This document shows positions 19,455-63,610 of a stretch of DNA of 64,000 bases, in pieces. Every line of letters begins with the position of its first letter. The first letter of the stretch is position 1. Source of the stretch: Vermamoeba vermiformis. Taxonomy: Eukaryota. Location of the stretch: assembly GCA_045837725.1 (NCBI GenBank), contig JBEWZL010000076.1, positions 434,001-498,000 on the forward strand, read 5' to 3'. The translations under genes were made by a program, and so were the position numbers. The notes under the pieces are model-generated. The model saw only the letters and a program-made list of their open reading frames with translations, ran no database searches and was not told the origin of the DNA.

Positions 19455-21281
19455 TTAATAGTTACTGTACAAATCATCGCTGCGCCACAATTTGATGGAT
19501 TTGTCGCCAGATCCAGTGAACAGCGTGCCCTTGTCAATAGCGAGGGCGTGAATATAGCCGTTGTGTCCTGCCAAGGTCTTCACGCAGGTCCAGGTCTTCT
19601 CTTCCCACACGCGCACGGTGTGATCGAATGAGCCGCTGAACAGATAGCCCTCGCTGTAGCCGAGCTGCCACACCTCCCAATTGTGTCCCGTCAGTGTGGT
19701 CACGTGCTCGTACTTGCGCATGTCGAACACGCGTATCTTGCAGTCATCGCTGCCCACGTAGATGTATCCACCACTCACTGCCACACTCAGCGCACGGGCT
19801 GACTCGTGTTCGTGCGGCTCTTTGTTGCTGATGCGCTTGACGAGGCTGTGATGGCGCTTGTCCCACACGGCCACACTGCGGTCCTCTGACGCGGTCACAA
19901 AGGTGTCGGGCCCGATCGATTTGATGCCCCAAATGCAGTCTTGGTGCGCGGACCACGTGTGCACTGCGGCGTGTGAAGAGACGTCCCAGAGCTTGAGTGT
20001 CTGATAGGCCCCTGAATAGAGCAGCGATTGGCGACCCTGATCTGACTGGCCCCCTGTCCATAATAGGCAATAGACCTGCAGGGAGAGCGAGTGAGTTCAT
20101 AGGCCTCACATAGACTGCTCGTCGTACCTTGCCGTCACCGTGCTGCAGCGTGGCCTCACACCGCGGCGTGTCGTCAATGCGCCACACTTTGATGTAGCCG
20201 TCCCCTGCCCCGCTAAACACGGTGGGTGAGTGCGGATCTGACTCGATCGACCACACTGTCACGCGATGTCCTGCGAGTGATCAGTCGTTGAATGTGACAC
20301 GTGGCTGTTACCTTCGAGTTGCGCGACACATTTGCAGTCACGTGACAGGTCCCAGAGTCTAATTTTAGTGTCGTGACTGCCACTCAGCAGCACGGTCGAG
20401 TTGTGCAGGGCCAGAGCTGTCACGCCGCGCACGTGACCCCACAAGCTGCGCACGCACTTCATGTCCTGCACCTTCCATCGACCAGGGCTCTCGAGCTCTG
20501 TCACGTGACTCGTGTTTGACCGCTCTTGACCGGACACTGCTTTGATCACGTGACGCTCTTCTTCGCTATCACTGTGACGCTGTATTTGACACGTGTCAGA
20601 ATGTCACCAGCGCAGTACTTTCCAAATTTGGTAATTCACTCACCTCGTGCACCAATCGCTTCAATTTGTTAATCTCTTGCGTCTGCTGTTCAATGGTGTG
20701 TTTGAAGAGCGAGATCTGCTGTTCAGTCTTGAGCAGGTACTCTTTGAGCTGTTCGAATACGCAGCTCTTCATATGCGCACTCAACTCGCGCGCGGCACCT
20801 TTCCAAGCACATCCAAAACTGTGGTGCGGACACTGCACTGGATGATACGCGCAACTGCTCATGTGCGCGGTGAGATCGCTGTAGGGCACTATAGTCTCGC
20901 AGCCGCAGTGTTTGTAGCCGCAGTGCACTGGCAGCTCACCAATCAGCGCATTTACCACCAGATTTGGATGCACCAGCGTTGGATCAATCGCGTGACGACA
21001 GAGCGGACATTGAGGTTTGTCATTGCCTGTGATCGCTCTATTTAGACACTCTTTGCAGAATGTGTGGCCGCACTCGCTGTAGTATTCAGAGTTAATAGGC
21101 GAAATTTAATGGGCAAATTGAAAAAATATCAAAAAATGTATTTATATAAATAAATTAATATAAAATCAACGATCATAGTAAATGACATGTACCTCGTAAT
21201 AATAGCCTCTTTGAATACGTCCTGACAAATAGGACACGATAAACTCTTTGATGGAGCAGTCACAAAAGGTGGATCTTCCAT
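19455..21281 (-). CDS. RING - TRAF zinc finger - coiled coil - WD40 protein (TRAF7-like E3 ligase architecture)
   Basis: RING LSCPICQDVF..CGHTFCKEC..CPLCR; TRAF-type C..H.FGC.W.G..L..H..C; coiled coil; GH...WD repeats including LTGHNWEVW and LFSGSFDHTVRVW. Confidence 0.82.
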
Positions 21282-21476
21282 CTGACTTCTAGAAGGTAGT
21301 GGTTCCCTTAGCGATTGTGGACATCAATATAGTGCTCGTGCGAGGTAAATGATTTGCAATGCAGTTGTAAATATCAACAATGGCGTGGCTGTGGCGTCAC
21401 TCGCATGTCACTGAATGGTCATTTATTTGCAACGAGCACGAGGTCCACAATAGTGTACACCGGACTATAGCGCACA

Positions 21477-22072
21477 ATGACTATCAAGTACTTCTTATTG
21501 GTCAACAAACAGGGTCAAACACGACTCAGCAAGTACTACGACTATCTGCCCATTGATGAGCGGATCTCACTCGAAGGTGAAGTGGTGCGCAAATGTCTCT
21601 CGCGCAGTGACTCGCAGGTAATTAATATAGTGCATAACGTGGCATGATGTTATGCGTTATTGTGCAGTGTACATAATTATACCGAATATTATTTGAATTA
21701 TTCGTATTTTTCGTAATTTAATTAGCCTCAACACCCCTCCTAATTATCCACTACTTACACTGCATATAGTGCGCATTCATCGAGTACAAAGATCACAAGC
21801 TCGTATATAGACGCTACGCTAGTCTCTATTTCATCGTGGGTGTCGATCAACTCGAAAATGAACTCGGCGTGCTAGAACTGATCCACATGATAGTCGAGAC
21901 ATATGACGCTTATTTCTCTAATGTCTGCGAGCTCGACATTATGTTCAATCTCGAAAAGGCGCACATGCTCGTGGATGAGGTGCTGAACCGCGGCAACATT
22001 GCAGAGACTTGTCGCCGCAACATCTTGGAGCCGATTGTGCTGCTCGATCAGACCTCGAAGGAGAAGAACTGA
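21477..22072 (+). CDS. AP4S1: AP-4 adaptor complex sigma subunit
   Basis: [56 protein letters not shown]. Confidence 0.93.
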
Positions 22073-22605
22073 TAGCTGCATATTCAGCGAGTATAAGGGC
22101 TTGTAATATATAACAATAAAACCCCTCTGTGAATAATCAGCGGATCTGTCATTTCACTGAACACGCCATTCAGTGAACTGCTGTCAAACGCTACACACTA
22201 ACGCGATGTCATACCTATACTAGGCACTAGTAATTAGAGTCGATGCACCGCTGAGTTTCCCTCAACAGCGTTGCTAGATCTGCCGGTACAAAAAAATGAC
22301 TTTTAATGCGCTACATGACTGTGCTTAGAGGTCTGTAGAGTGCATGATACGACTTTCTAGAATATAGTGCTATATACATCGATAATAGGAGTGCCAGCAG
22401 CGTGTTAGGTTAGAGATTGGCCTTGGACCTGCATCCAAAGAAAAAACAATAATTAACGACACTAACGGCTTATAATGCATTAAATATATAAGTATGATAA
22501 TTGTTCGTTGAATTACACTCTCTAATTGAAGTGTATTTGTTTATTCAAAAAAGAAAACTTCTTGCGATCAGATCGACGCAAAAAAGAATAGTAATTATAA
22601 GAGCA

Positions 22606-23693: not shown

Positions 23694-26600
23694 CTACAGA
23701 CTGCTGTGCCAGGCGCGATAACTCTCTGTGACTGCACGTGTCGCGTCACGTGTCAGTTCTTCCAGGGCAGTGACACGTGTCTGCAGCGCACTCGTCACTT
23801 CGTTGGTCTCCGAGGCTGAATTGATCACTGTGCAAGAGGGATGAGATACACGATCATTACCAAATAAGGCAAGTGACTTACATTGTTTCATGGAAAAGTA
23901 GATCTGATCGCACTCCTCGCGCAACATGCGACGCAGTTCATAGTGCAGCTCGAGCAACACGAGTGCAGTTCTGACACGTGTCAACTAGCGGTACACACGA
24001 TCAGTCACGTGACTACAAACAGCTGCAAACAAGTACGTACCTCATCGCGCGTGAGTCCGCAGCTGGGACAGAGCCAGTGGTGCGTGCTGAGGGGCAGCTG
24101 TGACATGGCCGGCACGACACAGTGCGTGTGGTACTGCTCTTGACACGCGTGACACTTGAGCAACTCTTGGGGGAAGCTCACTGGGCCTGTCACGTGCTGC
24201 ACTTGAACACTTGTGGCACGTGATCTGCAAATGACGCATGCCACCGCAGGATCTACATCATTCTCAATGGACTGCGTGGTGTCCAAGGACTGCGTGATAG
24301 GTGTCAACTCCGCACTCGCAGTGACAGGAGCCTCTTTGACAGGTGTCTCTTTGACAGGTGTCTCTTTGACAGGTGTCTTGGTGTCAGTAACGGGAGCCTC
24401 TTTGACAGGTGTCTCTTTGACAGGAGCCTCTTTGACAGGTGTCTCTTTGACAAGTCCCTCCAAGTCGCGCATCATCTCTTCAGTGAATGCCTCGTCAGGC
24501 AAGAAGTCATCGTCGTTGAACACGCGCCGTTGAGTGGCAGCACGTGGCAGGGTGCGACGTCGTTTGTTGGGCGAGATGTCCTCTGCTGTCACCTCGTGCT
24601 GTCTCTTGCGCGAGGGACTGCTGCTATTATTAGCTCCATCCTCCACGTTGTTGTTGCGCGGGGGACTGTTGTTGATGTTGACGTTGTTATTACTATATTT
24701 GGTGTTGCTGTCACTCTCCATCGGCTGATTGAGATCGATCATGTGTGACACGTCATCGGTCATCTCTTCTCGTGCAGACTCGTGTTTGACAGGTGTCACT
24801 TTCTCTTCTTTGTCCTTCATCACCACATCTGCAGTGCTATTGAGTGTGCTCGGAGCTATTTTTAGTCGCAGTGCTGGCCACGACATTGGTGTTGTTCTCT
24901 GCGTGGGTGGTGTTTGCATGGTTGTTCGTGTGGTTGTTGTTATTCTCTTCATTCATCGGTCCATTGCTGTTGTTGTTGTGAGTGCGCTCCTCCTTCGTCT
25001 CCGCGTCCTGGTCGCTGCTGTGATCGTACAGCGGCTTGAACTCCCCGCCACTGCTCGCCAGCACCAACTTCTCCAAGTGGTACGCCTGATCGCGCGTGAT
25101 TCGGAAGTTGGTGCCGATCGGTGCGCGCAGAATGGTGATCTGTGCCAGGGCGGGGTTGGCGCGCACTGTGGCCTTGTCAATGCGTGTCGGCAGCACATAG
25201 TCCACGTGCACGTGACAGCGCAGCTCTTTCTTGGCACCGAGATTGGTGTCGTGCGTGTACTTGGCCATGGCAGCCAGCTCGTCAATCTCTGCGGGCTCAC
25301 TGGTGACACTGCCCACAGCGAGCACACCAGCCTGCTTGCCCGACTCCCAGATGAACACCTTGTCGCCGAGGTGTATCTTGCCCGTCTGCTGCTTGACCAG
25401 CCACGTCATGTCACTCAGCTCTTTGAGACTCGTTTCAATGTCGTAGTACTCGGGATTGGCTTGGAACACCCAGTACCGCGCTGCTCCTGCCTCGTACCCG
25501 TCGTTGACACTCCCCTGCACGGGTGGCACTTTGACACGCACGCGAGTGGCACTGGGCGAGGGCAGTTCAGTGGGCTCATCGAGCAGCGCGCGCTTCTTCT
25601 TATGCGCGTATTCTTTCTTGTACGCATCGCCTTCACTCTTGCGGCGCTTCAGTGCTGGTGCTGGTTTGACAGGTGTCACGGGTGTTGACAGCTCTTCATC
25701 TGCAAAGCTGACACGGCGCTGTTTTTTGCTCAGTTTTTTCTGTGAGTGAGTTTTGGGTGTCTTTTTCACTGAATCACGCTGCACTCGGTCCACGGCAGCG
25801 ACGCACGCGTGAATGTGGTGCGTGAAGTGTGCGCGCAGTGCGTCGAGAGTGCGTTCAGTGGGCCGAATGCGCTGTGTGAATATCGATCGATCGGGCACAG
25901 GAATGCGCGACAAATCTACGCTGGCACCTGGCAACAACTCAACTGCTGCGTGCAAGAGACACGTGACGCAGTACTGTTGCAAGTGTCGCAGCTGTGAGTA
26001 GGTGACGCGCGCAGAGTGCAGCAGTTGCGTGGCAGACTCGTGCAGTGCGAGCACAGGGGGCTGTTTGAGCGGCATCCAGGGCTGCAAGGAGTGCGGTGTG
26101 CTGTGCTGACGACAGAGCGGCACTGAGGCAGCGAGCAGCGAGAACTGTGCCAGCACCCAGTGCTTGTGTATCACACTGCGCGGTGCGGTGCTGCGCTGCG
26201 TGGAGTTGAGCACAAAGGTGAGGGGAATGAGCGGCACCACGCGCGCCTCGGTGCTGTCACTGGTGTCAGCGGATGAGGGCGCGACAGTGTTGGACTCGGC
26301 ACGTGACGCGGCGTTGGTGCTGTTCGGTGCCACCAGACCACGTGACTGCGCGCACGAGGGACAGAACCAGTCGCCCTCAGGCACTGCAGTGAGTGGCGTG
26401 GGCAAGCAGTACATGTGATAGCCACCATCGCAGCCATCGCACAGCAACATCTTGTCGTCATCTGAGGCACTGTCGCACAGCTCGCACTTCATCTTGATCA
26501 CCGAGGCACACATGGGCGAGCAGAACCACTCGTTGGGGATGCGTGACATGGGAGGATCGAGGCACTTGAGGTGATAGGCGCGGTCACAGCACGTGCAGAA

Positions 26601-28113
26601 CACCATGCGCTTGTTGTCACGTGGCTGCTGGCACAGACCACAGATCACTTCCATCGACTGCACTGTCACGTGATGTTCGTCCAGCACACCGCCGCTGCGC
26701 ACATAAGCGGACTGCAGGGCTGGGGGCAGTTTGGCGCGACACATGAGCTGCAGCACAGGTCAGTCACGCACTATGGCTAGCCATGCACAGCACTTACCTT
26801 GGAGATCACGGGCCACTCTGCACCGTACACCGCGAGCAGTGCGCGCACCCAATCGAGTTCGATCTTGCTCCAGCGGTGCGGGTGGAAGAACTTGCTGACA
26901 CGTGTCACTTTGTCACTCGGCAACACCCCGGCACTGTTGGCGCGGCGCAGCGAGGGCTCAGCGTGCTTGCGGCGCGGCATTTTGTCTTGAAAGAGCGGCG
27001 GCTCCACCTCCATCTCAATCGGATCCGTGTCGTACACAATGTACTCGGCTTGGTAGGCGCTCCAGTACAGATCTGTCTGCACGGGGTCGTAGCCGAGGTA
27101 CGAGTCCGGGTACTTGCAGCTAATGTCGCGGTACGAGGGCACTGCGAGCTCGTCGTTGCGGTGCGGTGCAAACTTGTTGTCGAAGGTGACGAGCTGCTCC
27201 TCGTCTTCGAGCGTCAGGGCGCGCAGTGCTTCGGCGTGCAGGGCCTTGTCTGTCACGTCGTAGTCCACCAAGTGCTTCTCGTCCACCACGTACTCGCGCG
27301 GGGGATTGAAGAGATTGGCGCTGATGAGGTGCTGCATCTTGATGTGCTTGGCTTGTTGTTCGGGCGTGCGGCGCGTGGACAGGAAGAAGCGGCGATTGAT
27401 CCGCGCTTGTTCGATCTTCTCGCGCAACTCGCGTGTGGCCTTGCGCTCAAACTCCTCGAGGGTGACGCGCTCTCTGATGCTGCGAATGTAACTGCGCGGG
27501 CACGAGTCAGATCTCGATCTGGTTGTAGCGGGGGACTTACCTTCGCTCTTCATCACTGTCGGCACTGTCGTCGCTGTCGATCACTTCTTGACGTTGAAAT
27601 GGTCGCCACTGAATACGAGCAATGTGTTAGTAATGGCTCTGTAACCTGCATCTGAGTGCCCGCCAAAATGACAGCAGCGGATGTGCCTTGCAACGCACTG
27701 ATCGCTCTCAGCGCCTTTGATTATAATGCACATACCTTGCCAAAGCTTCTTTTATGTTTCTTTTTCTTCTTGCGCTCTTGTTCGCTCTGATCGTGCGTGC
27801 CATTGCCGAGTGGATGGGCCGTGGTGTTGCTGGTGGCAGTCGCGTGGAGACTAGTGCTCGTACTTGCTATGGAGGTCTGCTTTGATGAGCTGCTCGTTGA
27901 GACCTCGTCGCTGCTCTCTTCAATTTTCTTGGGCGATCTATTTTTATTTTTGTTTTTACTCGCAGCGCTCTTATTATTCGCAGTCGTATTCTCGTTATCA
28001 GCGACATAGCCACTAGTCTCTATATTATTTTTATTATTCTTCTTGTCCGCTGATGGCTTCTTATGCATCTGCGCTTTCTTCGCGTTGGCTTGCTTCTTCT
28101 TGCTGTCCGACAT
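23694..28113 (-). CDS. Large chromatin-reader protein: SANT-like - PHD - PHD - EVE - TPVK repeats - PHD; multi-exon, with a frame break near 24860
   Basis: SANT-like RWSKIELDWVRALLAVYGAEWPVISK; two C4HC3 PHDs (~26355-26645); EVE-like YWVFQANPEYYD...W......IHLGDKVFIWESG..GVLAVG.V...GTNF (~25063-25475); third PHD (~24058-24240). GT-AG introns join the other ORF pieces. Confidence 0.8.
24322..24453. repeat. 15-bp coding tandem repeat (VKETP/VKEAP) inside the PHD-EVE gene
   Basis: Repeated unit tttgacaggwgyctc, about 7-8 copies in two blocks. Confidence 0.9.
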
Positions 28114-28293: not shown

Positions 28294-31200
28294 ATGACTG
28301 CAGTGCAAGAGCAGGTCGTGGCGCTGATTAACGACGCCAAGCTGTCCACGGACAAAGAGCTCATCCAATCCAACTTGCAACAGGCCTTTGAGCTCGTATT
28401 CAACAAAGACAAGTCACTGCTCGATGAATATTATCCTATATTTCTAGAATTTCAAACCGACAAGCACGGTGGCGTGCGCAAGTGGCTCATTGGCATGATC
28501 GAGTCTGTGTGCAAATCCTCGACCAATTCTGAACGTATCCTGCTCGCTCTATTTTTTAAAATTACTCTCATCTGTATCGTGTTGTTATGACCGATAATCA
28601 GAATGATTTGATCACTAATTTATTTATCAAAATAATTTTTTTCTTTGACTCTCGATCCAGACCTCATTCAAGCCCTGCAAGCACTGTGGTATTTATCTAC
28701 CGATGAAAGCATCAATGTTATTAAGAAGATCATATCAGCCAGCACCATGTTGTTTCCCAAGTGGCTAGAAGTATTGTAAGTCCCTCGCTACATCTGCACT
28801 GCGTACTGACGCGTTGAATAGCGCGCAACTCGATGAGAATAGGACCAAAGAATTATGGGCCCGCAGCATTGAACTGCGCGACAAGATCACCGCGCTGATC
28901 CACTCTGACAACAATGTCGTGTCGATGAGTGCCATCAAATTCACTGAAACAGTGCTCAGGAGTTATTCCGACGAAAAACTCCGCATCCCCCACGTGGCAG
29001 ATCACGTGATCAAGAACGAGTGCGACGCCCTGCTCGAACTGCTCATCGACTCGCTCGGCACTCGACTGTAAGTAACTTGCCAAATATAGTAATAGCGACT
29101 GACAGGTGTCAAATCAGCACTCCGACCAATCTCGTGGTGCTGATCAATGCCCTGGGCACCATCGCCAAACAGCGCACACAGTTCACTGAACGCGTGAGTG
29201 TGGCCCTGGTCGAGTTCCACGCCCAGCCCAACGAGAGCGTGGCCAAGAGTCACGTGAAGAGCATTCAGCACTCGCTCAAGGTCAATCTGCTGCACATTGC
29301 CAAGTAAGGACACAATGCATTTGACACGTGTCAATCAGCGACTGACAGGTGTCACGTGACAGGGTGAAAGGAGTGCCAGCAGGGCCGTGGACTGAGCGCG
29401 TGCAAGAGACGCTGCACTCCCTCGGTGTGCGCAGTGCAGAGCTGTCACAGCAACACGTGCTGCCGGCTGTCGATGTCTTCTCTGACGCACCCAATGCCAG
29501 CACCAAGCGCAAGTACAACGAGATTGCGGACGAGGAGGACGGGCCCAACAAACGCGCGCGCACGAGTGACGAGGACCGCGCCAGTGCCACCACAGCGGTG
29601 AACACTCTCACGCAACTGTTGCCACCACCTGTCATCGTGTCACTCGTCATTGACACTTTTCAACGAAATCTCGCGCCATTCATGCCTGCTCGTGCCACTC
29701 AGCCAGCCAATCCGAATGCCTTATTAGTACGTCACTGGTTCTATATTTAGCCCACTCACCAATCTTTGCAGCAATTCTTCAACACTTTGCAGCCATTGCG
29801 CAGTCTGCCACGTGCCCCAGCGACAGCCACCTCGGCGCACTTGGTGAGTGTGCTGTCCTCACTCGCCACACAGCGCCGTGTCACCGCGGAGACACCTGTC
29901 ACCGAGGCACCCGCACCACGGGCAGTCCCTGTGAGCGAGAGCAAGCCCAGTGCGGAACATGCTCCGAGTGCAGTGCCAGCAGCGAGTCAAAAAGTGTCGC
30001 TCGAACTGACTGCGCCCGTGTTGAGTGCAGAAGAGCTCAAGAGACTCGCGGAGGGCTGTTTCATGCGCCTGATCAGAACCAGCACCGATGTTACACATGT
30101 CACACGCCGCACTGCACCCAAGACACGCTCGTCGCTGCTGTCATTCTTGGCCACGCAGCGTGACGTCGACTCGGCCGAGGTCACTGCGCTCTTGGCTGAC
30201 ATTGCTGCGAAATTTCCTGCTTCACTGAACACCACAGTCACGTGGCTGTACTTTGAGTACAACAACGCACTGACCGCGCAACACGTGACTGGCCAACTGA
30301 CCCTCACGCGCTACTCGCAAGTGCTGGGCCGTGTGTTGCAGAGCATTGCCCCGCGCTTGGACGGCAAGGACAAGACCGTCGCCACGCTGCTGACACAACT
30401 GCCGCACGTGACTGTCGAGTGCACGCAGTTCATTGAACAGCTCGCCGCACAGCCGCACACACTCAAACTCGCACTCTCGCTGCTCAAAGACCTCACGCTG
30501 CTGCGACCGCGCGCACGTGATCAAGCATTGCAACTGTTGCTGCGCTACGCCACGCACGAAGACGACACGGTGCGCACACTGGCCATCCGACTGGTCTCGA
30601 GCAAGCTGTTCACGGTGAAAGATCTCGCTCCCGTGATTGAGAAGTACGCGAGCGATCAGATGCAGGCCCTGGTGGAGAAATATCCAGCCTCGCAACAGCA
30701 AGAGGTGATGACGGAGATTGACGAGCAGAGCACGCACCCCAGCGCGAGTGTGCAGGAGAGCGAGATCAAAGCGCAGCTCTTGTTGTACTTTGCACTCTGT
30801 TCCAAGCGACACGAGCTCTTGCAGTCCCTGATGCAGTACTACACGCAACTCAGCACCCCTGTGCGACGCATCATTCACACGCAGTCGCAGGGACTCATCA
30901 AATCGATTGGCATGCACTCGCTGCACTTGCTCGCACTCATCACCAAGCCCGTGCCCGGATCTGAGCTCTTCTTGCTGTACATTCTCAACATCCTCACTGA
31001 CACGGGTAACGATCACCCTTTATTATAATTATAATATTATTATTATCGCTCACTGCTCCGCTATTCAGTCACACCCTCCTCGCAGCTCGTGGCCAGTGTG
31101 CGCGATGCCTACGAGTCCACCGCAGACGCGCGCTTCTTGATCCCCGTGGCGACAGGTCTCGACAAGGCTGAGCTGCTGCAACACGTGCCGCGCTTGCTGG

Positions 31201-46200: not shown

Positions 46201-48552
46201 ATGAGCTCGAAACAGACCCCGCCTGCTGGTGGCAAGCGCACCAAGACCACTGAAAAGCGCTTGAAAATGTACGCCACGCGTGCCAAGCGCGACAAGCGCG
46301 GCAAAGTGGTGTGGGAGGCCTACAAATCCAAATCCACCGATCACATCGCGCGCATTCAGCCCGACAGACGCTGGTTTGGTCCCTCGAGAACTGCGACACC
46401 TGAGGCTATTGATAAGTTCCGCGAACAAGTCAAAAATGTCGTCGATCCCTACCACGAGTCCAAGGGTGCAGATCCATCCGACACCAATCCTGCGCCACTC
46501 ACGCCAGGCAGTACTGTAGCTCGTCATACTTATCTGCTCAAACAGGCCAAGATTCCCTATTCTCTGCTGCACACTAGAGACCACTTCCCAAATGCGATCA
46601 ACAATCGGATCTTAGATGTGGAGAGCTACGCCTCGACATTTGGACCTAAAAATACGCGCAAGAGACCTAAGATAGCCGCGAGTGATTATAGCGAGCTGTT
46701 GAAACGAGTGGAGACCACGCAAGGTAAGTCGAATCTCAATTATTTCTTCGGTCTAAGGGTGACACAATGTGCTTGATTATGCGTGCAATTAATTATAATA
46801 TTATTTATGTTAATTATTGCTGGCACTAGCAGCGCTGTTTGCACTCAGATCGCACCATCAGATCGCGATCAACTAACGAACTTATTTTTTAATTCAGAAA
46901 CTTACAAAGAAGACGCAGATCGCAACATCAAAGTCGAACAAGAATACAAAGAACAACAAGGTGATGCGGTGCTCACGGCAGGTCAATCCAACCGCATCCA
47001 CAACGAACTGCACAAAGTGATCGACGCGTCAGATGTGCTCATTCAAGTGCTCGATGCGCGCGATCCTGAAGGCACGCGCTCACGGTGGCTAGAGAAGTAC
47101 CTGCGCAAAGAACATCCGCACAAACATCTGGTGCTGCTGCTGAACAAGTGCGATCTGGTGCCGCAGAAGGTGACCAAGCAGTGGCTGAGTCTATTCTCGC
47201 GCGAATATCCCTGTCTCGCCTTCCACGCCTCGCTGCAGCGTCCCTTCGGCAAGGGCGCGCTGATTCAGATCCTGCGCCAGTTCCAACAGCTGCACGCCAA
47301 GGACAAGCAGCAGATCTCAGTCGGCTTCGTGGGCTATCCGAATGTGGGCAAGTCGAGTGTGATCAACACGCTGCGCCACAAGAAGGTGTGCAATGTCGCG
47401 CCCCTGCCCGGCGAGACCAAAGTGTGGCAGTACATCACGCTGTTCAAGCGCGTGTTTCTCATCGACTGCCCGGGTGTGGTCACGGCCGTCGATGTCGCCA
47501 AGCACAATCACGTGCTCGAAGATCAGTACCAGCAGCAGCAGCAGGAGCAGAGTGCAGACCCAGCACGTGATCAGCCCGGCAGCAATGTGGTCTCGGAGAA
47601 AGAGGCCGCGCTGGTGCTCAAGGGCGTGGTGCGCATTGAGAACTTGACCGATCCCGTCTCGTACATTGGTCCGCTCTTGACACGTGTCAATCTCGAGTAC
47701 ATGCAGCGTGTCTATCAGTGCGAGGTCAGCACCAATCACGTGACGTTCTTGGAGACGCTGGCCAAGAAGATGGGCAAGCTCTTGAAGGGCGGGCACCCTG
47801 ACATCACACGTGTCGCGCGCATCGTGCTCAATGATTGGCTGCGCGGAAAAATTCCGTTCTACACCAAACCTACGGGCACACGTGACAGCACCGCGCGTAG
47901 CAGTGATGCGGAACAACTCCGCGCACCGAGTCAGCTGATCGAGAACATCCCCGTGAAGGAGGACTTCAAAGAGCTGTTTCATGAAGAGTTTGAAGACGAG
48001 GCCCTGGTGGATGGCGCGCAGCAGGCTACACGTGACGAAGATGTCGCGAGCGAGGAGGAGGCAGAGCACGATGAAGACGAAGATGATGAGGACGAGGCCC
48101 CGATTGACTGGGACGCGGTGTACGCTTCAGTGAATCCCGAGCAAGATTTCAACACGATCCACCAGCACGAGCACAAAGACGCTAAAAATAGCAGCGTCGG
48201 ACTGCCCAAGACTGCTGACTTGCCTAAATTGGAACTGCAATCACCGCTCATGGACGACGACGGACCAGCACGTGGCCGAGCACGTGGTCAGGGAACAGTT
48301 CCCAAAGTCCAAAAAGAGAAAAAACAGCGCGGCAAAATTAAAAAGAAATCGCAAGTGAAATCTGAAGACGAGATGAAGGACCTGCTCCGCACACTGGAGA
48401 CCATAGAAGGCAAGTCTAATAATAGCAGCAAACAGTACAAAAATAGAAACAACCAAAATAAGAAGAAGCGTGCGCGCTCCGAGCAGACGGAAGATTTTGA
48501 AATTGTTCCGCAGGACTCACGCGCCAAGCGACGCAAGTTGACACCGCAATAG
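46201..48552 (+). CDS. GNL2: Nucleolar GTPase Nog2/GNL2
   Basis: ARIQPDRRWFG, GQSNRI..EL.KVIDASD, NKCD, GYPNVGKSS, GETKVWQYITL, DCPG. Confidence 0.95.
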
Positions 48553-49114: not shown

Positions 49115-50431
49115 ATGGCGAACACATCACATGCTCAAAAGCCACGTTCAGTGCGCATTGAACCACTCTTCGTGCCTGAATTGAAAGATCTCGCGCAGAC
49201 TTTTGAATCTGCATTGAAAGCTAATTTTAAGCTTGTAAGTGCGGCATATATTGCACAAATATTATATGCACGATATTGTGTGGCACCAGGATGAAAGTAG
49301 CCAGTACAAGATTTAATTTTAATTGATACGTTTCCTACAAATAATAATATGCCATATAAGGCAATAGCAGTGACTCTCACGACCAGGCTGCACTTCCTAA
49401 TTTAGCAACTAACCATGTGCAGGTGGAGGTAGAAACAGTCACGTGTCCAGATCTGCGTCAGTGGGGGCTCGCTTCCGAGGGTTTGACTTCCCAATTAGGA
49501 AAGAGCGGTCAAGGCACGCAGAACGATGCGCATCTAAAAATAGGCACCAATCAGGTGGCAAGTGGCACGCACGAGAATGCGCAGTACGTGGTGGACATTG
49601 GTGGCGTGGACAACATGCACTACACGGCCAATCACAGCTATTTTTGGAACTTTGAGGACATTGCCGCTGCTGTCAACTGCAAAGATGCCTTTTTTGTCGG
49701 GGCAGGTGCCAGCAGCAAGCACGTGACCGGTGACAACTGCGAACTGATGCCCAACACGCACGTGCACCACACTTGTGCCAGCAAATCTGCGGAGGTCGAT
49801 CCGAACTCTGGCCGCTGTGTGCTGGTACGCACTTGCCTTATTTGGTAACGCATCTTCGCTGACTTTCCATATTTAGAAAGAGTACCAGAGCAACGAGTTC
49901 GGCACGCTGTGCAATGTGTACGGGTCACAGGGTCTACCAGGGCCTGTCATTCGTGTCAGCTGTCACGTGCGCACTGGCGCGGACAATCCGATCACGTGTC
50001 TGCGCAAAGCACTCATTGCCCAATATGGTACTGAGCGCATGATCGGTATCGGCGGAGTATTTCAGATTCAAGAAGGCACGATCAAAAGTCACGTGATGCC
50101 CAATTTTCCTAATAAGGATCTGTTGGACATGACGCAGGTCAATGAGTGGCTCAAGTTCTATCACGTGCCTCTCACGCCGTCCAATCCAGCCACGTGCCTG
50201 AGTGTGTTCGTGAATGCCGATCCACTCAATCTCGGCTTGAGATTGGACCACACACACTTCTACCAGGGCCTCAGTGCAGATCCGAGTGCGGGCCTGGACG
50301 GACACGGCACAGGGCACGGCGGACACTATCACTACGACACCTCGCCCGAGATTGTCAAGTACGTTGGGTACTTCTCACCCGCGCAGTACTTGGCGCGTGT
50401 GGATCCTGCAGTGGCACCTGGCACCCATTGA
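49115..50431 (+). CDS. DUF1907 / C11orf54-like Zn ester hydrolase
   Basis: CPDLRQ.GLASEGL, VDIGG, GAGA, NCELMPN, HVMPNF, LRLDHTHF, GGHYHYDT. Confidence 0.88.
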
Positions 50432-50518: not shown

Positions 50519-52544
50519 TTAACTGTTGCGCTGCGAGGCACGGTTGAAAGTGGTCATGGAGACAGCATTGCCATCTTTGGCAGTGCTATTATTAGCGCTC
50601 TGTTTACTCGCAGTCTTGTTGTTGTTGGCATTGGACTGCGCTGCATTGCTGGCACTCTGATCGTCGATGAACTGCGCATTGAGCCAGTCATTCCACTTGC
50701 GGTAGTGGATCTGCTTGGCGCGGTCCCACAGCGCGTGTGCATCGAGATTGCAGGGCTGTCCTTGCAGCGTGCGATTGAGCTTGATGCCGACGGTGAGCGT
50801 GAAGAAGAACTCGCGCTTCATGTCCTCAATCTCGGCCAAGAACTCCTCTTTGACGCCACTCACCTCGTGCAGCAGCAGTCGACGGCGCAGCTGTTGTGCT
50901 TCAGTGCGCAGCTGATCGAGTTCGCGCTGATAGTACTCGAAGGTCTTCTTCTTAGCCTTGCTCTCCGTCGTCTTCTCTTGCAGCAGTCGTTGCAACTAGT
51001 GTCAAAGGCGTCAGTCAGTGCTACACCACACCTAGATATTAGATAACACTACGCACAGTCTGTGAGAGGAATGAGTTCTGTGTCTGGTGCGCTTGATTCG
51101 CCACGCGTGCATTCTCCAATTCTTCGACCAGACGTCGGATCTGCTCCTTGCTGCTCGGTGGCTTGGTGCCACTCGTGCCAGCAGTGCTCGTGTCCTCCGT
51201 GTAGCCCGTGGAGCGACGAATCTCTTTGAGCTGATGTCCGAGCTTGGCGAACTGTTCGTTCTTGGACTCAATCTCTTGCTTGAGGAAGTCGAGTTCGTTC
51301 TCGAGCGCCACTTGTCTGTTCTGCAAGATGTCGTTCATCTCCTCACTGCGGTGCAGCTCGTCACTCGCGCGATAGAACTCGTGCTCCACCGCACTCAGCT
51401 TGGCCTCCAACTCGCGCACCACCGCACTGTCCACGTGACTCGTGCTGTGCTGATCGGTCACGTGCTCCTCGCTGATCACGTGCTGCGGCTGCGTCTCCAG
51501 GGCCACACGCTTGCGTTCGAGTGCAGTCTCTCGCTCGCGCAGTGCTCGACTGGTCTCGTCGAGGTCACGCTCGCGCTCCACCACTGCACTCTCGCGCCGC
51601 TTGAGGGCCTCTTCTTGCTGATGAATGAACTCGTGGCGTTGTGCCAGCACTGTCTCGCGCTCATTGAGCTGCTGACTCTGCACTTTGAAGTGTTCTTGCT
51701 GCAGTTCAAACATCTTGTGCGTCTGTTCGTACTGGCGCACTTTGAACGACAGCTCCTCGCTCTGTTCGCGCACACTCTCGCGCTGATCTTGCGCACGTGA
51801 CTCGAGTTCTTCCACCTCTTTGACACGTCGCTCCATGTCACCCTCTGACACGCGCAGTTGTTCGTCACGTGATTTGAGATCTGATTCTTTGCGTTGCAGT
51901 TCTTCGCGCAATTCTTCAATTCTTTTCTCCTCGCTCTTCAGTCGCTCGTTCATTGTCTCCAAGTCACGTGCTCTGTCCTCGAGATCACGTGTCTGTTGTT
52001 CCAATTGTTCCGCGCGTCGTCTGAGATCCGCGTCGAGTGCAGCCACTTGACTCTGCTGCTGCTTGAGGTCACTCGTCGACTTGCTCACTGCACGCGTCTC
52101 TTCGACCAAGCGCGCCTCGACTCTGCGCACTGCTGACAGCGCGAGCAACAGCTTGGTCACATCAATGTCACGTGCTTGCATCACCGCTGCAGTGCCTAAT
52201 TTGTCCACGTCATCAATCGTGTCTTCCAGCTCTAAAAATAGCTCCAGTCAGATCTGCGTCAGCGAGTGCATGCAGCACGTACCTATGAGCTGCGGTATAG
52301 TCTTGAACAACGAGTCTTCGCCGCTCTTCAGCTGCGATTGTGATTTGGTGCGCAATAGACTCGGCGCACTGCCGTTCAGTGCCGCTACATCTGCTGCGTC
52401 GAAAGAAGGACGAGGACTCGTACGACTACTGCGCACTGCTACTATATGAGGGCGTACTGGCAGCTCTTGGGGCTCAATGTCTGTTTCTTTGCCGCTATCA
52501 ATAAATTCGCTCAAGTCTGCTGTCTGATCTGGTTGATCTGTCAT
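50519..52544 (-). CDS. Long coiled-coil protein with a small C-terminal helical domain, 3 exons
   Basis: Over 350 aa rich in E/Q/R/L heptads; C-terminal KREFFFTLTVGIKL...LWD.......WNDWL. Confidence 0.75.
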
Positions 52545-52844: not shown

Positions 52845-54894
52845 TTATTTACAGAATATATTTACAATACGCGCTTCACTGCCTAAAGGGGCACCGCATA
52901 TGATATCGTTCTTCGGCGATGCATTCGAGGGTTTTAAAGTCAGATGTGCCGTGGTATACCCTTGCTGTTCAGCATACACATTACGATCATAATTGATGAG
53001 GCTACGAGAGCAAAGGATGTGTTATTATACGATGGTTTGGAAATGACCGCTACACATACCCCATGGCGTGCTTGCCTAGCCAGTACGCAGTGGACTCCAC
53101 CTGACAGGCAGTCTGATCGGCACGTGACGCCAACAGTAGATAGTCCTCGAATGTTAGACCACACGTACTACCAAATAAGGAAGAGCGGGGATAGTGTATG
53201 CCAGCTCCACCGTGCCAGTTAGCGATGGCACCGAGACAGCAAGGCACGAGACAGTACGCTGCGCTGTGCTTGAGACAGTAGTCGAGCACGAGATCTGACA
53301 GCGCGCCACACGCGTGGAGTGCCAGACCGAGCGTGCACGTGACTGGCACTCTGCCATCGAGCACTGCTTGCACGTCGGCCAAGACGACTTGAATATTTTG
53401 CAATCCAAGGGCACGAATTCTTTTCTGTGCGAGACTGACACTGACCTGTGAAAAATACCGCTGAGTGACATGTGACACATTGATACTTTGGATGGTGACG
53501 TACATCATTCTTGTCGAGCAGTACGAATTGATTGTGCGGGAACAAGTACGCAAGCACGAGTGTCAGGTGACCGCTGCCCGCACAGAAATCTACCACGACA
53601 TCCCCTGGCTGACACGTGTCAATCGCGCTGTGGTGATGCATGTATAACGTACCTGAATCATACTGCCAATCACGTGCACGAGTCCAGCTACTTGATCTCG
53701 CTTGCGATCCAATCGTTGCTTCTGTTCGCCCAGACCACGTGATGGATCCAACTCGGCGGGACTGCGCGACCAGTCCACGTGATATTTGCAGGCCAATGAT
53801 CTATTTTTAGCATCAACGCGCACTCCTGCATCAATACCCCGCGTGTCGTCATCGTACGGCACGACAACATTGCCTAATTTGGCTATGACAGATTGCCAGG
53901 TGACAGCATTGCTGAGTGCGTGGTGATGCCGCCTGTCACTCACTGCGAGCTGCAGTTCAGGACCAGACGTGTAGCGCTGCGTGAACTGATGCCACTCCAT
54001 GTGGAACTGAACAGAGTGGTCAGTTGAGGTAATTCTAGCGCAGTATCAATTGATTGGTCGTACTGTGGTGTGCACGAGACTCGCCACATCCAACACCGAT
54101 AACTCTTTGTGCACTGTTCTGAATTGTACGACCTCTACTCTGTTCTGAATATACTCGAGCCATATTAATATGTTGACTGTCAGCTCCGCGAGGTGTGGAT
54201 GTAGTGCAGGCAGTGAGTACAAGACACGCTGGAAGCAGATCAGCCGTGCATAACTACGTGTAGAGCGACTAACTTACTATTACATGCTGCAAGAAAGGCA
54301 ACAAGATGAAGTCGATGATGGAGATGTAGCTCCACCCAATGTGAGTTCTACTCCTCAGCACGCGATTCAAGCGCAGTAACTCAGCCGGCACGTCACTGAT
54401 GCTCGGCACTTGATCGCCAACGATTTGTGCTTCAAAAACACGCCACTGAGCTAATATTTCTTCGTACCACTCGAACCATGGTGGCACCTAAGATAAAATT
54501 ATGAATTAGTCTCGTTGTATATTCACACTAAACTAGTGGATCGCGATCCAAAACGATAATTTTGTAATTTAGCGCCAAAAATATGCTTATATCTTACCAA
54601 CTTTTTTCCTGATTTTTTGAAGCCTAAATAATAACATTTTGGAATATTGTCCCACTTGCGATCTCGCGTTAATTCTGATTTGCCGGACCGTTGGTAATAA
54701 GTATTAAATAGCGCTGTTACTATGTCTCTAATACCCGTGTAACTGATGTTGCTCTCCACATTGATGAGCACTGGTCGGATCTGGTCTGTCAGTTGCAGCG
54801 GTGTCTCAGTCTCGAACACATGTCTGGCGAGCAACACTGACGCATTCAACACTGGATCTGCACTCAGCGCGAGAGTGAAGGGTGTGTGGTGCAT
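52845..54894 (-). CDS. GSTCD: GSTCD-like protein (GST C-terminal domain plus class I methyltransferase), multi-exon
   Basis: VDWSRSPAELDP, RLDRKRDQV, VVDFCAGSGHL, LALHACGALSD, VPCC.G, YPRS, SPKND. Confidence 0.85.
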
Positions 54895-56691: not shown

Positions 56692-58041
56692 TTATTCATC
56701 GTGAGCAGCCTTTTCAGCAGCAGCAAGCTTGGCTTTAATGTTCTGTTTGCGTTGCTCAAGGGTCAGCTTCTTGTGGTTGTAGGCCTTGGGTTTCTTGTCC
56801 TTGGGGTAAGCCTTCTTGGTGCTTTGGAAGGCGGGGTTGGCGCGGATGGCGGCGTGGGCTTTCTTGTACATGGCCTCGACCTTATCAGCGTCGATGCCAG
56901 CGGCGATGAAGCGAGCGAATTGCTTCTTGTATCTTTCTTCGTCCTCTTCCTTCAATGAGCGCATGTAGTCGGCAACATGACCACCCAAAATGTATTTGCG
57001 GAGAGTAGCAGCGTCGAACTTGTCGCTCTCAGCATCATAACCAGGGAATCTCTTGGTCTTGTGAGGGACCTTCAAGCCACCATCAACGGCACCCTTCAAG
57101 ACAGCAAAGACACGAGCACCAGTGGAGGTACGGGCCAAACCAACATCGAGCAAGACGTTGAATGGTCGAGGACCGTCGGCGTTGTCTTCAACGAGGTAGA
57201 ACTCACCGTTGGGATCCTTGACACCAACATACTTGTCGGCCAAGTTGAGCTTAGTAAGCACTCTTCTGGCAATCAGCAAACCAGTGGCGTAGGCTATAGT
57301 TTAAATAAGAAGGAGTTAGTACGATGTGAGTTCAACAAATTTTACGACTTTCAGAAAATTTAAAATTGTTCCACAACGGTTATTTCAAAAAAGCGGGAAA
57401 AATTGCGCGACATCGATGAAAGGTCACAAAATGGCCAAGTCTCCAAAGCGATTACGAAACACTTACCAGCAGCGTAGTTAGTAAGACCGAGAGGGATTCC
57501 GTAACGAGGAAGCTCGTGAGCGTAAGCAGCAGAGAGAACAACGTCGTGATCAATGGTGGCGTAGACGATTTGAGCAATAATATCGGTGTTGGTCTATATC
57601 GATTAATTTAATTAGTTACCCATCTTTGTTACTATTAACTTCGCGACATGTCAATAGTTTATGGTTGGATCGCGAATCTTCAACGAAACTTACAATGCGA
57701 ACAACGAGTCTGTATTTGTGGGTGTTGTATTTGTTCTTGTCTTGAGTGATCAATCTCTTACGGGCATAGTAGTCGGTCTTACCCTCTGTAATTATTTATT
57801 AAAATAATATTCTTCTTCGCTAATTATTATTATTTTAATTACCTCTTCTTCTTCTGTATTTAACTTGGAAGCGCTTGAAGTAAGCCTTGTTCTTAACAAC
57901 CTTAACGAATGGCTAAAATAATAATATTAATTATAATTATGTCGAGTAAAATATTAAGTAGGTCGAATAATCGCGTATTAATAAGCCATAATAATTGGTA
58001 TTTAATATATTTTAGTATTGGTAGGTGGTTAAACATACCAT
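56692..58041 (-). CDS. RPL5: 60S ribosomal protein L5 (uL18); first intron directly after the ATG
   Basis: [51 protein letters not shown]. Confidence 0.97.
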
Positions 58042-58190: not shown

Positions 58191-58221
58191 TGACAAACAA
58201 CTCGCACAGCACCAAGTTAAA

Positions 58222-59641
58222 ATGCTTCGCCTTGGCTTTAGATCACTACGAAAGTGTATTTCTTCGCCACTTCGTACACACAGACTACCCGAATCGGTTG
58301 GTCAGTTCATCCGAAGATCATCAACATCCGCTGAAGTCTGTGATATTGATTCTCCTCAGTTGACCAATGAAAGCAAAAAAATATTAGAGCAACTGAGAGG
58401 GGGAAACAGGTGGGCCCTTGCTCGTGCTATAACTTTAGGTAAGTGATCTAGATTGCAACTTGTAGACCCTGTAATCCTTTTTGGGTCGTTTACTAATTAA
58501 TTAAGAGCGAATTTTATTAACTGAAAACATGTTTAGTTGAATCTACCAAATGGGAGCACCAACAACAAGCCCACGCGTTGATTAATGAGATACTCAAAAA
58601 TAAAAGTAAACTCGAAGCCGCAAATCAAATTGACGTAAGACCTGGGAGAACAATATTTATAGTGACTTTCGACTAATGTATACTTTATCATGATCCAGAC
58701 TTTTCGTGTTGGCATTTCAGGCTCGCCAGGAGTTGGCAAATCAACCTTTATCGATACTTTTGGTGTCTATTTGTCCAAACACCTCAACTATCCTGTTGCG
58801 GTACTGGTAAGTGCCAGTGAGGGCATAAACGCGTGAACTCACCTCCTCTTCTCAAGGCAGTAGATCCGAGTTCTACGGTGACAGGCGGGTCTATATTAGG
58901 CGACAGAACACGTATGCCCAATCTAACGCAGCAAGACAACGTGTTTGTGCGCCCTTCGCCGAGTCGAGGCACATTGGGCGGTGTGACCAAGAGCACCAAC
59001 GAGTCTATTCTGCTCTGCGAAGGTCGGTACTGTTGATAGTCTTTTGCGAGCGGTGCACTGACCGAGTGCTTATAGAGGCAGGATACAAAGTGGTGCTCGT
59101 TGAGACGGTGGGTGTGGGTCAGAGTGAGATCGCCGTCGCAGAGATGGTCGACTTCTTCCTCATGCTCGCACAACCAGCCTCAGGAGATGAACTGCAGGGC
59201 ATGAAGAAGGGCATTGTAGAGTCTGCAGATATGATTGTAGTGACTAAAGCGGACGGGGATCTGGTCAAGAAAGCAATGGAGACGCAATACGAGTACATGG
59301 CAGCAGTCAAGCTGATGAGACCCAAGTACCACGATCTCTGGCGACCAAAAGTCACGCGCTGTTCGGCAGTCACGGGCGAGAACATTGACAAGGTGTGGGA
59401 GACCATGCACAACTTCTGGGAATTGATGCGCAAGAACGGCGGCATTGCGGCCAGACGTGGTCAGCAGCGACAGGCGTGGATGTGGAAGTTGTTCGACGAC
59501 GAGTTGGAGCGACGATTCCGCAACAACACGACGATCAAAGAGCAACTGCCGCACATTGAGCAAGAGGTCAAACTCGGCACATTGAGCCCCACCCTCGCCG
59601 CGCATCAACTCGTGATTCAAATGTTTCAGAGCAAGAAGTGA
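58222..59641 (+). CDS. MMAA: MMAA/MeaB GTPase chaperone of methylmalonyl-CoA mutase, mitochondrial
   Basis: [55 protein letters not shown]. Confidence 0.94.
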
Positions 59642-61634: not shown

Positions 61635-61940
61635 AGTAATCAGCTCCCAGTGTGTTTCATTCAAGGGCGATTCAGAAGCTTTGATAATTAACCGTGAAAA
61701 TATATGTTTTATTCGCCGCACAATCTCGCAGCAATCTCATTGCCCTAATTAGGCAAGTACCGATCGACAGTCTTGGAGGTACCCATTGTGGTATGCAATA
61801 TCGCACGATAAGCAGGATCAGATATTGAGAGTGATTCAATCATTGATAGACATTGCCAGCTGCTAATTAGGTGCAGCAAGCAGTGCTAATATCGATACAG
61901 GCACGTGATGAACAACTATTTACAAGCAATGTACAAGCCT

Positions 61941-63234
61941 CTAACAACAGGTCGGGTCCTCAGGCTTCGGGCTGGGGTCGCTAGTCTTGCACTCTTCGAA
62001 CCACGGCAAACAGGTCGCAGCGTGACACCACGAGCAGACGAAGTGACTCCACAACGCCACACTGAGCAGCACGAGGGCAGTCACAATGACACTCACGCCC
62101 AGTAGCGCTCTGACACGTGTCTTGTGACGTGCGGCACGCTCCCACTGCGCAGCGACACTCCACTGCCGCGGCACACAGACCAGCGAGGCCAGCACGCCGA
62201 ACACCAGTCCACCCACGTGCGCAAAGTTCTAAGAATAGTGTCAATAAATATAACACACGTTCAAAACTACTTGCATCGATGTGCGGTGCAATGCCCACGA
62301 GCAGCGAGAGCAGTGTCGAGGCCACGATTTGAATCACTTTCACGCGTCGATGTGTGTGCACGCACCAGTTCACGGCCAGATCCACTGCAAAGATGCCGAA
62401 CAGACCGAAGATGGCGGAACTCGCACCGACTTGCAGTGTCTCGGGCAAGAAGACAGCACTCGCCATGTTGCCGCCAATCCCAGATAGGAAATAAATCAGT
62501 GCCAGGCGCCACCAGCCCAAGAAGCGCTCAGTCTGCATGCCGAGCCACAGCTGCGAGAACATGTTGAGCAACAGGTGCACGAATCCCGAGTGCAAGAACA
62601 GCGCAGTGAATAGGCGCCACACTTGTCCCTGCAAGATGAGCGGGGTGAATTTGGCGCCCAGCTGGATCAAGCTGTCGAGCGAGACATTGAGCCACCAGCC
62701 CTTGGTGACGCCTTGATTGACGACGAGCTGCACGATGAACATGATCATATCGATGGCAGTGATGGTGAAGGTGAAGTACGCGCGACGGTGCAGCTTCAAA
62801 TTGAGAAACGGACGCGGCTTGTGGCGCCTCTGCTGCACTGCTCCATCTGACTCGAGCTGCGACATGATAAACTTGTCCTGCAGTGTGTCTGTGTCTGTGC
62901 TTTGAAGCATTTCTAGCAGTTGTTCGTCTTTGAATTCTGGCTTGATCAACTCTAATTTTCGTGGCGCAGAATCTGCATAAAAATGTAAATTGGAAATTTA
63001 AGGCAGTATGACCCATATAGTATTTATTGGCACTATAATATGTTTTATAACAAATGATAATTTTAGAAGCGATAATTGATGATTTCTAATTGTCTGCAAA
63101 GTCATACCACCGCGTAGACTGATGAATCTGTTTTCGTCGTCAGAGTCGATGTAGTCTTGATCATCGTCGTCCTAGTATCATCGTCTCTGTTAGCATGGCT
63201 GTTGGTGCATTCGCGTATCACTTACATAATTCAT
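61941..63234 (-). CDS. Rhomboid intramembrane serine protease
   Basis: GQVWRLFT..FLHSGFVHLLLN, catalytic VGASSAIFG, HIDNFAHVGG after splicing. Confidence 0.9.
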
Positions 63235-63610
63235 CGTGGTGTTCGTGTCAGTCTAAGTTAAATTAGTGCAAGGCTTCGGAAACACTGCACGACACCGCAC
63301 ATGACACGTGTCAACTGCCTTGCTGCACCGCGGCATTGAACTGAGTGTCATGCACCTCTCCTTGCTGGGAAAGAGGTCCCCAATCTTTGAGTCCCTGCAT
63401 GGGGTTTGTCTTAAGGACGAGTGGCACTACAACCCTACCATGCCCTGACGATTAGATTATCGAGTGCATGAGCGGATCCGATACTCCGAGCGATCACGTG
63501 GTTTTATTTATCCGCGAAATGTCCTTTGCTCCCGTCCGTTCATTAAAACATTTAATTCTGAACGCACGACCACACACCAAGTATTCAATCAGATAGATAA
63601 TCAATTAGTA

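Follow-up and report, generated by a model that had tools for sequence, protein, structure and literature searches.

Why should a single 12-bp palindrome recur through the exons, introns and spacers of one stretch of DNA? The question is raised by 64,000 nucleotides of the Vermamoeba vermiformis genome (contig JBEWZL010000076.1, forward-strand positions 434,001 to 498,000; hereafter the window, in whose coordinates all positions are given). Here TGACACGTGTCA and its variant TGACAGGTGTCA occur together with a large excess of the hexamer CACGTG. From the spacing, symmetry and distribution of these sites, we tentatively propose that a putative dimeric DNA-binding protein recognizes both the 12-mer and its CACGTG core, the sites being concentrated in islands within gene bodies.

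Seven exact copies of TGACACGTGTCA and four of TGACAGGTGTCA, every one of the latter on the + strand, lie at all the positions listed for them in the original prediction. The near-matches that it gave (11 of 12 bases) are likewise present, as TGACACGTGTCT at two positions and as AGACACCTGTCA at 29890, the last being one base off the reverse complement of the GG-centered form.

20587..20598, TGACACGTGTCA, exact: 64-nt intron 20580-20643 of a minus-strand RING/Sina-TRAF/WD40 gene
23972..23983, TGACACGTGTCA, exact: between the stop codon of the PHD-EVE gene (reading frame ending at 24008) and the Fe/Mn-SOD gene
26896..26907, TGACACGTGTCA, exact: predicted coding exon of the minus-strand PHD-EVE gene, reading K-V-T-R-V-S
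29322..29333, TGACACGTGTCA, exact, within the 14-mer TTGACACGTGTCAA: first of two copies in the 59-nt symplekin intron 29304-29362
47678..47689, TGACACGTGTCA, exact, within the 14-mer TTGACACGTGTCAA: coding exon of an NGP1/GNL2-type GTPase gene, reading L-L-T-R-V-N
53610..53621, TGACACGTGTCA, exact: 3' end of the predicted 44-nt intron 53609-53652 of a minus-strand methyltransferase gene
63302..63313, TGACACGTGTCA, exact: intergenic, about 70 nt upstream of a predicted minus-strand rhomboid start
24787..24798, + strand, TGACAGGTGTCA: antisense to the PHD-EVE gene, whose sense strand reads K-V-T-P-V-K
25667..25678, + strand, TGACAGGTGTCA: antisense to the PHD-EVE gene, whose sense strand reads P-V-T-P-V-K
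29100..29111, + strand, TGACAGGTGTCA: 50-nt symplekin intron 29068-29117, in the context CGACTGACAGGTGTCAAATCAG
29343..29354, + strand, TGACAGGTGTCA: second copy in the symplekin intron 29304-29362
23771..23782, TGACACGTGTCT, 11/12 match: stretch upstream of the SOD gene
62111..62122, TGACACGTGTCT, 11/12 match: rhomboid coding exon, reading K-T-R-V-R

These counts far exceed expectation. In dinucleotide-preserving shuffles (n = 100), TGACACGTGTCA was expected 0.02 times and TGACAGGTGTCA 0.01 times, and the observed counts were reached in 0 of 100. Markov models of orders 0 to 6 predicted 0.007, 0.021, 0.026, 0.061, 0.18, 0.37 and 0.77 occurrences of TGACACGTGTCA on both strands, compared with 14 observed (seven sites); the hexamer-preserving model of order 5 corresponds to about 0.2 sites, while orders of 7 and above overfit by memorizing the 64-kb sequence. 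Because the expectation never rises above 0.77, di- to hexanucleotide bias, which the original prediction had named as the explanation that could undo it, does not account for the counts within the window. As in HIP1-type elements, a perfect palindrome thus stands well above higher-order Markov expectation.

The two arms are held at a strict spacing. The + strand has about 130 occurrences each of TGACA and TGTCA, and as an inverted pair the two stand 2 bp apart 11 times but only 0–4 times at each other spacing from 0 to 12 bp; everted and direct TGACA arrangements number 0–7. The spacer in the 11 sites is CG (seven) or GG (four) only. The flank TGA is paired with itself at 7 of the 98 CACGTG sites, compared with 1.1 expected from half-site frequencies, and the other common flanks (AGT, TGT and GAT) show no pairing. 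Two of the GG copies are in sense and two in antisense orientation. Palindromes of 12 nt of any kind number 43, with 27.1 expected from order-3 simulations, and 9 of the 43 come from this 12-mer family. A general excess of palindromes was therefore rejected as a cause; with the class only mildly raised, the effect is sequence-specific.

Assignment to exon, intron or intergenic DNA was based on a purpose-written hidden-Markov gene finder trained on Pfam-supported reading frames. It returned 33 genes, 32.7 kb of exons and 70 introns, the latter having a median length of 59.5 nt and the form GTA(A/C)GT ... CT(G/A)AC ... YAG, and occupying 10.7% of the window. By these models, short introns contain five of the 11 exact copies (20587, 29100, 29322, 29343 and 53610), predicted coding sequence another five (four of them convincing) and intergenic DNA one. 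The contexts given by the original prediction were correct: coding copies read x-T-R-V-x or x-T-P-V-x, and others occupy the branch-point position of introns or intergenic DNA. For the copy at 23972, the gene model indicates an exon, yet a stop codon stands just upstream in the printed reading frame, and it most likely belongs to the upstream region or 5' leader of the SOD gene. For the copy at 47678, an alignment of eight sequences from animals, fungi and Capsaspora showed the Arg to be invariant and the Val present in 7 of 8. As the copy aligns without insertion over these retained residues, the motif there was written by substitutions and not inserted.

The GG-centered form is real in all four copies, but two of them (24787 and 25667) are explained by a TPVK peptide repeated within one gene. 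They are the least mysterious part of the finding. The family of TPVK motifs to which they belong includes the following array, whose protein has three PHD fingers and an EVE domain.

24322..24460, minus strand: tandem 15/30-nt coding repeat, KETPVKEAPV..., with five one-base-off copies of the form TGACAGGTGTCT

Tandem repeats were rejected as a general cause, as they account for the TPVK array only. The PHD-EVE gene also has long stop-free antisense reading frames, for example 24729-25688 on the + strand (319 aa).

The core shared by the seven CG-centered copies is itself abundant, as the original prediction had reported. With 98 sites, CACGTG was the top hexamer of the window by both count and z-score, occurring 196 times on both strands compared with 97 expected at order 3, and C precedes 72% of all ACGTG words. 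The four GG copies hold CAGGTG instead. Judged against the composition of each compartment, CACGTG was found 78 times in predicted exons (22–25 expected), 9 times in predicted introns (1.8–2.5 expected) and 11 times in predicted intergenic DNA (4.2–4.7 expected), an enrichment of about 2.4–4-fold that is seen in all three. Several neighbors differing by one base are depleted relative to expectation (AACGTG 0.5–0.59, GACGTG 0.59–0.64, CATGTG 0.56–0.73). Flank preferences are seen as well: of the 196 half-sites, 99 have G at -2 and 79 have T at -1. The extended cores GTCACGTGAC and GACACGTGTC occur 5 and 9 times. Within coding sequence the oriented extensions GTCACGTG and CACGTGAC number 19 and 20, equal for sense and antisense. 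This equal frequency on both strands places the constraint on double-stranded DNA and not on protein or RNA.

Codon choice and even peptide content give way to the motif. Coding sequence holds 79 CACGTG sites, compared with 29.2 after synonymous shuffling within genes (z = 12.6), 33.7 when junction dinucleotides were kept and 48 when each codon was conditioned on the whole previous codon. Reading frames 0, 1 and 2 contain 35, 34 and 10 of these sites. The dipeptide His-Val occurs 42 times (26.9 expected) and is encoded by CACGTG in 35, CAC and GTG being the preferred His and Val codons. Thr-Arg-Val occurs nine times (3.2 expected), seven of them encoded by ACACGTGTC, although ACA, CGT and GTC are minority codons, and the tripeptide HVT occurs 12 times (1.8 expected). 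The convincing coding 12-mers are confined to frames reading T-R-V or T-P-V, a restriction of the HIP1 type. The parallel that the original prediction drew with HIP1, a motif overriding codon preference, is thus borne out.

Sites are not spread evenly. Eight islands totaling about 8.6 kb contain 68 of the 98 CACGTG sites:

19701..20595: 8 sites, in the WD40 part and two introns of the TRAF-like gene
23735..24546: 8 sites
25203..26904: 9 sites, in the PHD-EVE gene
28991..31187: 12 sites, in the symplekin gene
47509..48286: 9 sites, in the 3' half of the GNL2-type gene
49440..50196: 8 sites, in the DUF1907 gene
51432..52174: 8 sites, in a coiled-coil gene
53121..53781: 6 sites, in the methyltransferase gene

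The GNL2-type coding sequence ahead of its island (46201-47508) has no CACGTG. Of the 27 genes whose coding sequence is 400 nt or longer, 13 lack the hexamer; random placement would leave 3.4 without it, and at most 8 in any of 2000 trials (chi-square P = 1e-4). Along the window, rich and poor genes fall into 11 runs where 17.5 were expected (z = -2.3). The same patchiness is seen outside exons, with 16 sites in the 15.1 kb nearest rich genes and 4 in the 16.3 kb nearest poor genes (P = 0.004), and all eleven 12-mers lie in or adjoining site-rich genes. Density in the carrying genes is about one site per 270 bp of coding sequence and reaches about 7 per kb in some. The hexamers separating rich from poor genes are CACGTG itself and those that overlap with it or with the arms of the 12-mer; since CACGTG counts also served to define the two classes, the comparison is partly circular. 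A uniform, genome-wide version of the mutational bias that the original prediction had suggested is a poor fit, since only some genes, with their flanks, carry the signal.

The CACGTG-free genes contain His-Val twice (6.9 expected), neither time as CACGTG, and use GTT, TCT and GCT more. Examples of site-poor genes are 4739-6614, 18185-18952, 34129-35799, 38799-39509, 56692-57623 and 58914-59641. CACGTG may be avoided in highly expressed genes, an effect not separated from chance.

Spacing, symmetry, indifference to strand and compartment, and codon override together argue that the sequence is read on DNA by a symmetric protein. Its targeting to particular genes and their flanks favors a role or activity tied to those loci, and binding is for this reason ranked first. 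Under the reading that we tentatively prefer, a symmetric dimeric protein would recognize both the 12-mer and CACGTG on double-stranded DNA, and sites would be retained or amplified at the level of DNA, in islands of about 0.7–2 kb in and beside a subset of genes. The first layer would be a generic E-box-type core with the preferred extension G[T/A]CACGTG[A/T]C. The second would be the favored exact form TGACA-[CG]G-TGTCA, often with an outward T or A, which would combine the arm geometry of a TALE-homeodomain dimer with an E-box center. With the constraint on DNA, the motif would therefore enter any tolerant frame (His-Val, x-Arg-x or Thr-Arg-Val) at the cost of non-preferred codons. In short introns, it would overlie the branch point CTGAC, which already demands half of the motif. 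We infer protein binding and the type of reader from these patterns, and the sites may have a regulatory or chromatin-organizing role.

Several points weigh against this reading. All results come from one 64-kb window, and the exon, intron and intergenic counts rest on our own unvalidated gene models, some of them doubtful: the model at 23694-24820 probably runs the 3' end of the PHD-EVE gene together with DNA upstream of SOD, and 53492-53647 is probably spurious. Predicted intergenic DNA holds just 1 of the 11 12-mers (23972 is probably another) and 11 of the 98 CACGTG sites, and this placement mainly in gene bodies is atypical for transcription-factor sites. The center is never the GC of the TALE site (0 of 11), so the half-site is TGACAC rather than TGACAG. 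Exactness is also sharper than most transcription-factor sites tolerate, with seven exact CG-centered copies to three one-off variants, and looks more like that of an enzyme target or a drive-spread sequence. Open-access papers and preprints yielded no precedent for one core per ~270 bp of coding sequence. Within the window, no protein binding the 12-mer was identified; its Pfam-annotated genes include no homeodomain gene, and the sole methyltransferase is a Methyltransf_32 protein.

A somewhat unlikely possibility is that the window contains a eukaryotic counterpart of HIP1. The 12-bp palindrome and 6-bp core would then have been multiplied by a DNA-level drive, or by selection, that dictates codon choice and tripeptide content. 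The islands would perhaps mark chromatin, recombination or expression domains through a TALE-like or E-box-binding dimer.

The main rival to protein binding is a neutral or selfish drive at the DNA level, of the HIP1 or very-short-patch-repair kind, in which near-matches are converted to the exact palindrome; we judge it unlikely. Copies would accumulate where selection on protein or expression permits, and highly expressed or constrained genes would stay free. The 7-to-3 ratio of exact to one-off copies is as such a process would leave it, as are the depletion of the outer-position neighbors of CACGTG (AACGTG, GACGTG and CATGTG), the shifted use of HV, HVT and TRV, and the involvement of all compartments. 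Site-poor genes are mostly housekeeping genes (ribosomal L5, a proteasome-type AAA ATPase, E2 acyltransferase, SOD, DEAD-box helicase and the AP sigma chain), and while codon usage is broadly similar in rich and poor genes, the poor use more T-ending codons (GTT 0.12 vs 0.03). HIP1 itself, as described in the available portions of PMC5861425 and PMC4390886, offers a precedent.

Other results speak against a drive. The least constrained DNA is sparser in sites (0.45 per kb in intergenic DNA and 1.3 per kb in introns) than site-rich exons, though it is also AT-richer, and the non-coding DNA beside site-poor genes is patchy as well, which purifying selection on proteins cannot explain. GC-biased conversion tracts were rejected, since the GC difference expected of biased gene conversion is absent: exonic 500-nt windows with at least three sites have a GC content of 0.55, and those with none 0.54 (r = 0.19). 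CpG methylation of genes was likewise rejected, with CpG observed/expected at about 1 in genes and no sign of methylation there. So was a specific deamination sink, as CATGTG/CACATG, the neighbors that cytosine deamination would produce, are depleted no more than other neighbors.

An RNA-level splicing element is very unlikely as a general explanation. Its 5' half would serve as the branch point CTGAC(A) and its 3' half as part of the 3' splice site or of a regulatory hairpin, the other copies being incidental. The intronic share of the 12-mers (5 of 11, in 10.7% of the DNA) is indeed high (P = 0.004). However, three of the five come from two introns of the symplekin gene, 29068-29117 and 29304-29362, which share 21 of 22 nt, AAT(C)AGCGACTGACAGGTGTCA; counting about three independent events among nine gives P = 0.06. 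For four of the five copies in introns, TGAC has its A 10, 15, 16 or 17 nt from the intron 3' end (15 nt for the copy at 29100, and 16 nt for that at 20587, in a CTGAC context). This is the usual place of a CTRAC-like element, 10–17 nt before the 3' splice site: in introns carrying CTRAC, its median distance is 14.5 nt, with an interquartile range of 11–17 nt. A preceding C completes CTGAC in three of these four copies, and at 53610, TGTCAG supplies the 3' splice site.

The introns of interest here have independent support. Intron 20580-20643 removes an in-frame stop and a change of frame between the TRAF-type and WD40 reading frames, and the exons flanking 29068-29117 correspond, each in its own frame, to consecutive segments of the symplekin N-terminal profile. 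For 53609-53652, the exon below matches the start of a methyltransferase profile weakly. The whole 12-mer is present in only 4 of the 70 predicted introns, and its remaining eight bases belong to no splice signal seen among the other 66. In the + strand intron 29304-29362, the two 12-mers can pair in a predicted hairpin of -19.9 kcal/mol (z = -2.4, with 3 of 200 shuffles as good), which encloses the likely branch point. Introns with single copies fold no better than shuffles (z = 0.34, 0.04 and 1.52), and RNA structure was rejected as a cause, unusual folding being limited to the two-copy intron. The window gave no match to known RNA families in Rfam at gathering scores. Six of the 11 copies lie outside introns, and a perfect palindrome with equal orientations is unexpected for an RNA signal; a splicing role would cover at most the four branch-point copies.

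We give similarly little credence to copying by descent from fragments of a short mobile or duplicated element, such as introner-like introns, a MITE end or a local duplication. The block shared by the two symplekin introns, the five one-off units of the tandem coding repeat and an 18-nt sequence, ACTTGCCTTATTTGGTAA, identical in two unrelated introns are what descent would produce, and 9 of 1431 intron pairs exceed the shuffled 99.9th percentile of similarity where 1.4 were expected. Yet these similarities are limited to blocks of 11–22 nt and never extend over a whole intron, and an introner family was rejected, with no full-length similarity among the 54 introns of at most 130 nt (of 70 predicted). 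Beyond one or two bases, the flanks of the seven CG-centered copies are unrelated, where a repeat, introner or MITE would extend into them, and the insertion-free alignment at 47678 and the only mild excess of palindromes at large point the same way. Mobile-element descent is unsupported beyond the one intron pair.

The 18-nt sequence forms a small family of its own. Its identical copies, at 49831-49848 on the + strand and 23857-23874 on the minus strand, directly follow the 5' splice site, and related copies lie near 225 (-), 9096 (-), 20634 (-), 29078 (+), 53183 (-) and 61756 (-). The family has the form TT(G/A)CC-(A/T)6-GG(T)AA, with the exact 13-mer TTGCCTTATTTGG occurring four times, and presumably resembles a CArG or MADS-box (SRF/Mcm1-type) site.

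That the pattern is a by-product of base composition, codon usage, amino-acid content or chance is scarcely credible and is refuted within the window: CAC and GTG are preferred codons and pentamer frequencies predict 149 of the 196 both-strand CACGTG (trivially so, because the words overlap), but every null falls short (dinucleotide, Markov orders 0–6, synonymous, junction-dinucleotide and codon-pair), introns and intergenic DNA are enriched too, and the 2-bp spacing is strict.

Two other hexamers are enriched across the window. AGATCT has 45 listed sites, 14 of them as CAGATCTG, and TGCGCA has 57; example positions for the two are 10712, 10736, 23046, 27069, 49449 and 52250. In coding sequence they occur 19 and 44 times, compared with 5.9 and 17.8 under synonymous shuffling. 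AGATCT is also found 21 times in intergenic DNA (6–10 expected) and, unlike CACGTG, extends beyond the site-rich genes.

The window as a whole is eukaryotic nuclear DNA with about 25–33 genes on both strands. Its Pfam domains include SAM with kinase, WD40, Spt4, Vps54, DEAD-box helicase, RING/Sina-TRAF with WD40, AP sigma, Fe/Mn-SOD, PHD with EVE, symplekin, ribosomal L11 and L5, AAA ATPase, tyrosine phosphatases, 2-oxoacid dehydrogenase E2, RNase PH, NGP1/GNL2 GTPase, DUF1907, Methyltransf_32, MeaB and rhomboid. Two of the proteins have their best named relatives in animals, chytrids, Capsaspora, oomycetes and dictyostelids, at about 48–59% identity; these matches would place the source no more closely than as a eukaryote that has short spliceosomal introns and may be related to opisthokonts. 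A close relative has proteins that are 86–90% identical. A scan of prokaryote-only genome contigs found no DNA related to the GNL2-type exon. The minus-strand gene at 19455-21400 joins a RING finger and a Sina/TRAF-type zinc finger to a coiled coil and WD40 repeats, an architecture that we take to resemble animal TRAF7, and is interrupted by introns of 64, 56 and 82 nt. A 2-kb non-coding stretch at 42501-44500 has a CpG observed/expected of 0.19–0.43, compared with about 1.0 in the rest of the window. None of its reading frames has Pfam support, a 43-nt tandem duplication lies at 44197-44282, and the stretch may be a decayed or methylated repeat.

If the pattern holds genome-wide, it would show that a short DNA word can be imposed on the exons, introns and spacers of a eukaryote, bending both codon usage and protein sequence. 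So far, effects of this kind are known mainly from bacterial elements, among them HIP1 and DNA uptake sequences. The patchiness from gene to gene gives a way to approach the cause, regulatory function or a drive by repair or conversion, and the branch-point overlaps provide four natural cases in which two codes share one sequence. The pattern would also bias gene finders and codon-usage analyses applied to this organism.

Among known systems, the E-box or G-box CACGTG is bound by bHLH and bZIP dimers. Its extended form GTCACGTGAC is of the USF, TFE and Cbf1 type, while GACACGTGTC is Hairy/HEY-type and ABRE-like. The 98 sites of the window have this core with preferred symmetric flanks. The window differs in that 78 of 98 sites are in predicted exons, with no concentration in promoters or non-coding DNA, and in that 4 of the 11 12-mers lack the core. 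The accessible parts of open-access papers and preprints did not describe any excess of CACGTG in the coding sequence of eukaryotes, and the exact 12-mer appeared in the open-access literature only in Ebola virus work, unrelated as far as titles and abstracts show. Splice signals are matched by TGAC at the usual distance of a CTRAC branch point in four introns and by one intron ending in TGTCAG, but the same 12-mer stands in exons and spacers too.

Two TGIF1 homeodomains have been co-crystallized on the palindrome ATTGACAGCTGTCAAT, sitting on opposite faces of the DNA (PMC6158717, in the portion available). The TALE dimer geometry named in the original prediction holds in part. Inverted TGACA arms exactly 2 bp apart agree with ATTGACAGCTGTCAAT and with TALE sites of the TGIF1/MEIS type, and the window has TTGACACGTGTCAAT at 29321 and 47677, while the GC center is absent. 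Outside the arms, where the TALE site has A/T bases (ATTGACAG...CTGTCAAT), T or A stands at 8 of 14 outward positions in the window (background 0.26, P = 0.014, a small sample) and twice yields the 14-mer TTGACACGTGTCAA. Most of the 12-mers differ from those sites in lying within gene bodies and not upstream.

HIP1 (GCGATCGC) of cyanobacteria is likewise a perfect palindrome far above oligonucleotide expectation, within and between genes. According to the available portions of PMC5861425 and PMC4390886, HIP1 is over-represented 15- to 300-fold and tied to orphan methyltransferases, its function or driving force being still debated and the link to orphan DNA methyltransferases proposed. The pattern described here differs from HIP1 in occurring in a eukaryote with spliceosomal introns, in being patchy by gene, and in its nested layers of a 6-mer within a 12-mer.

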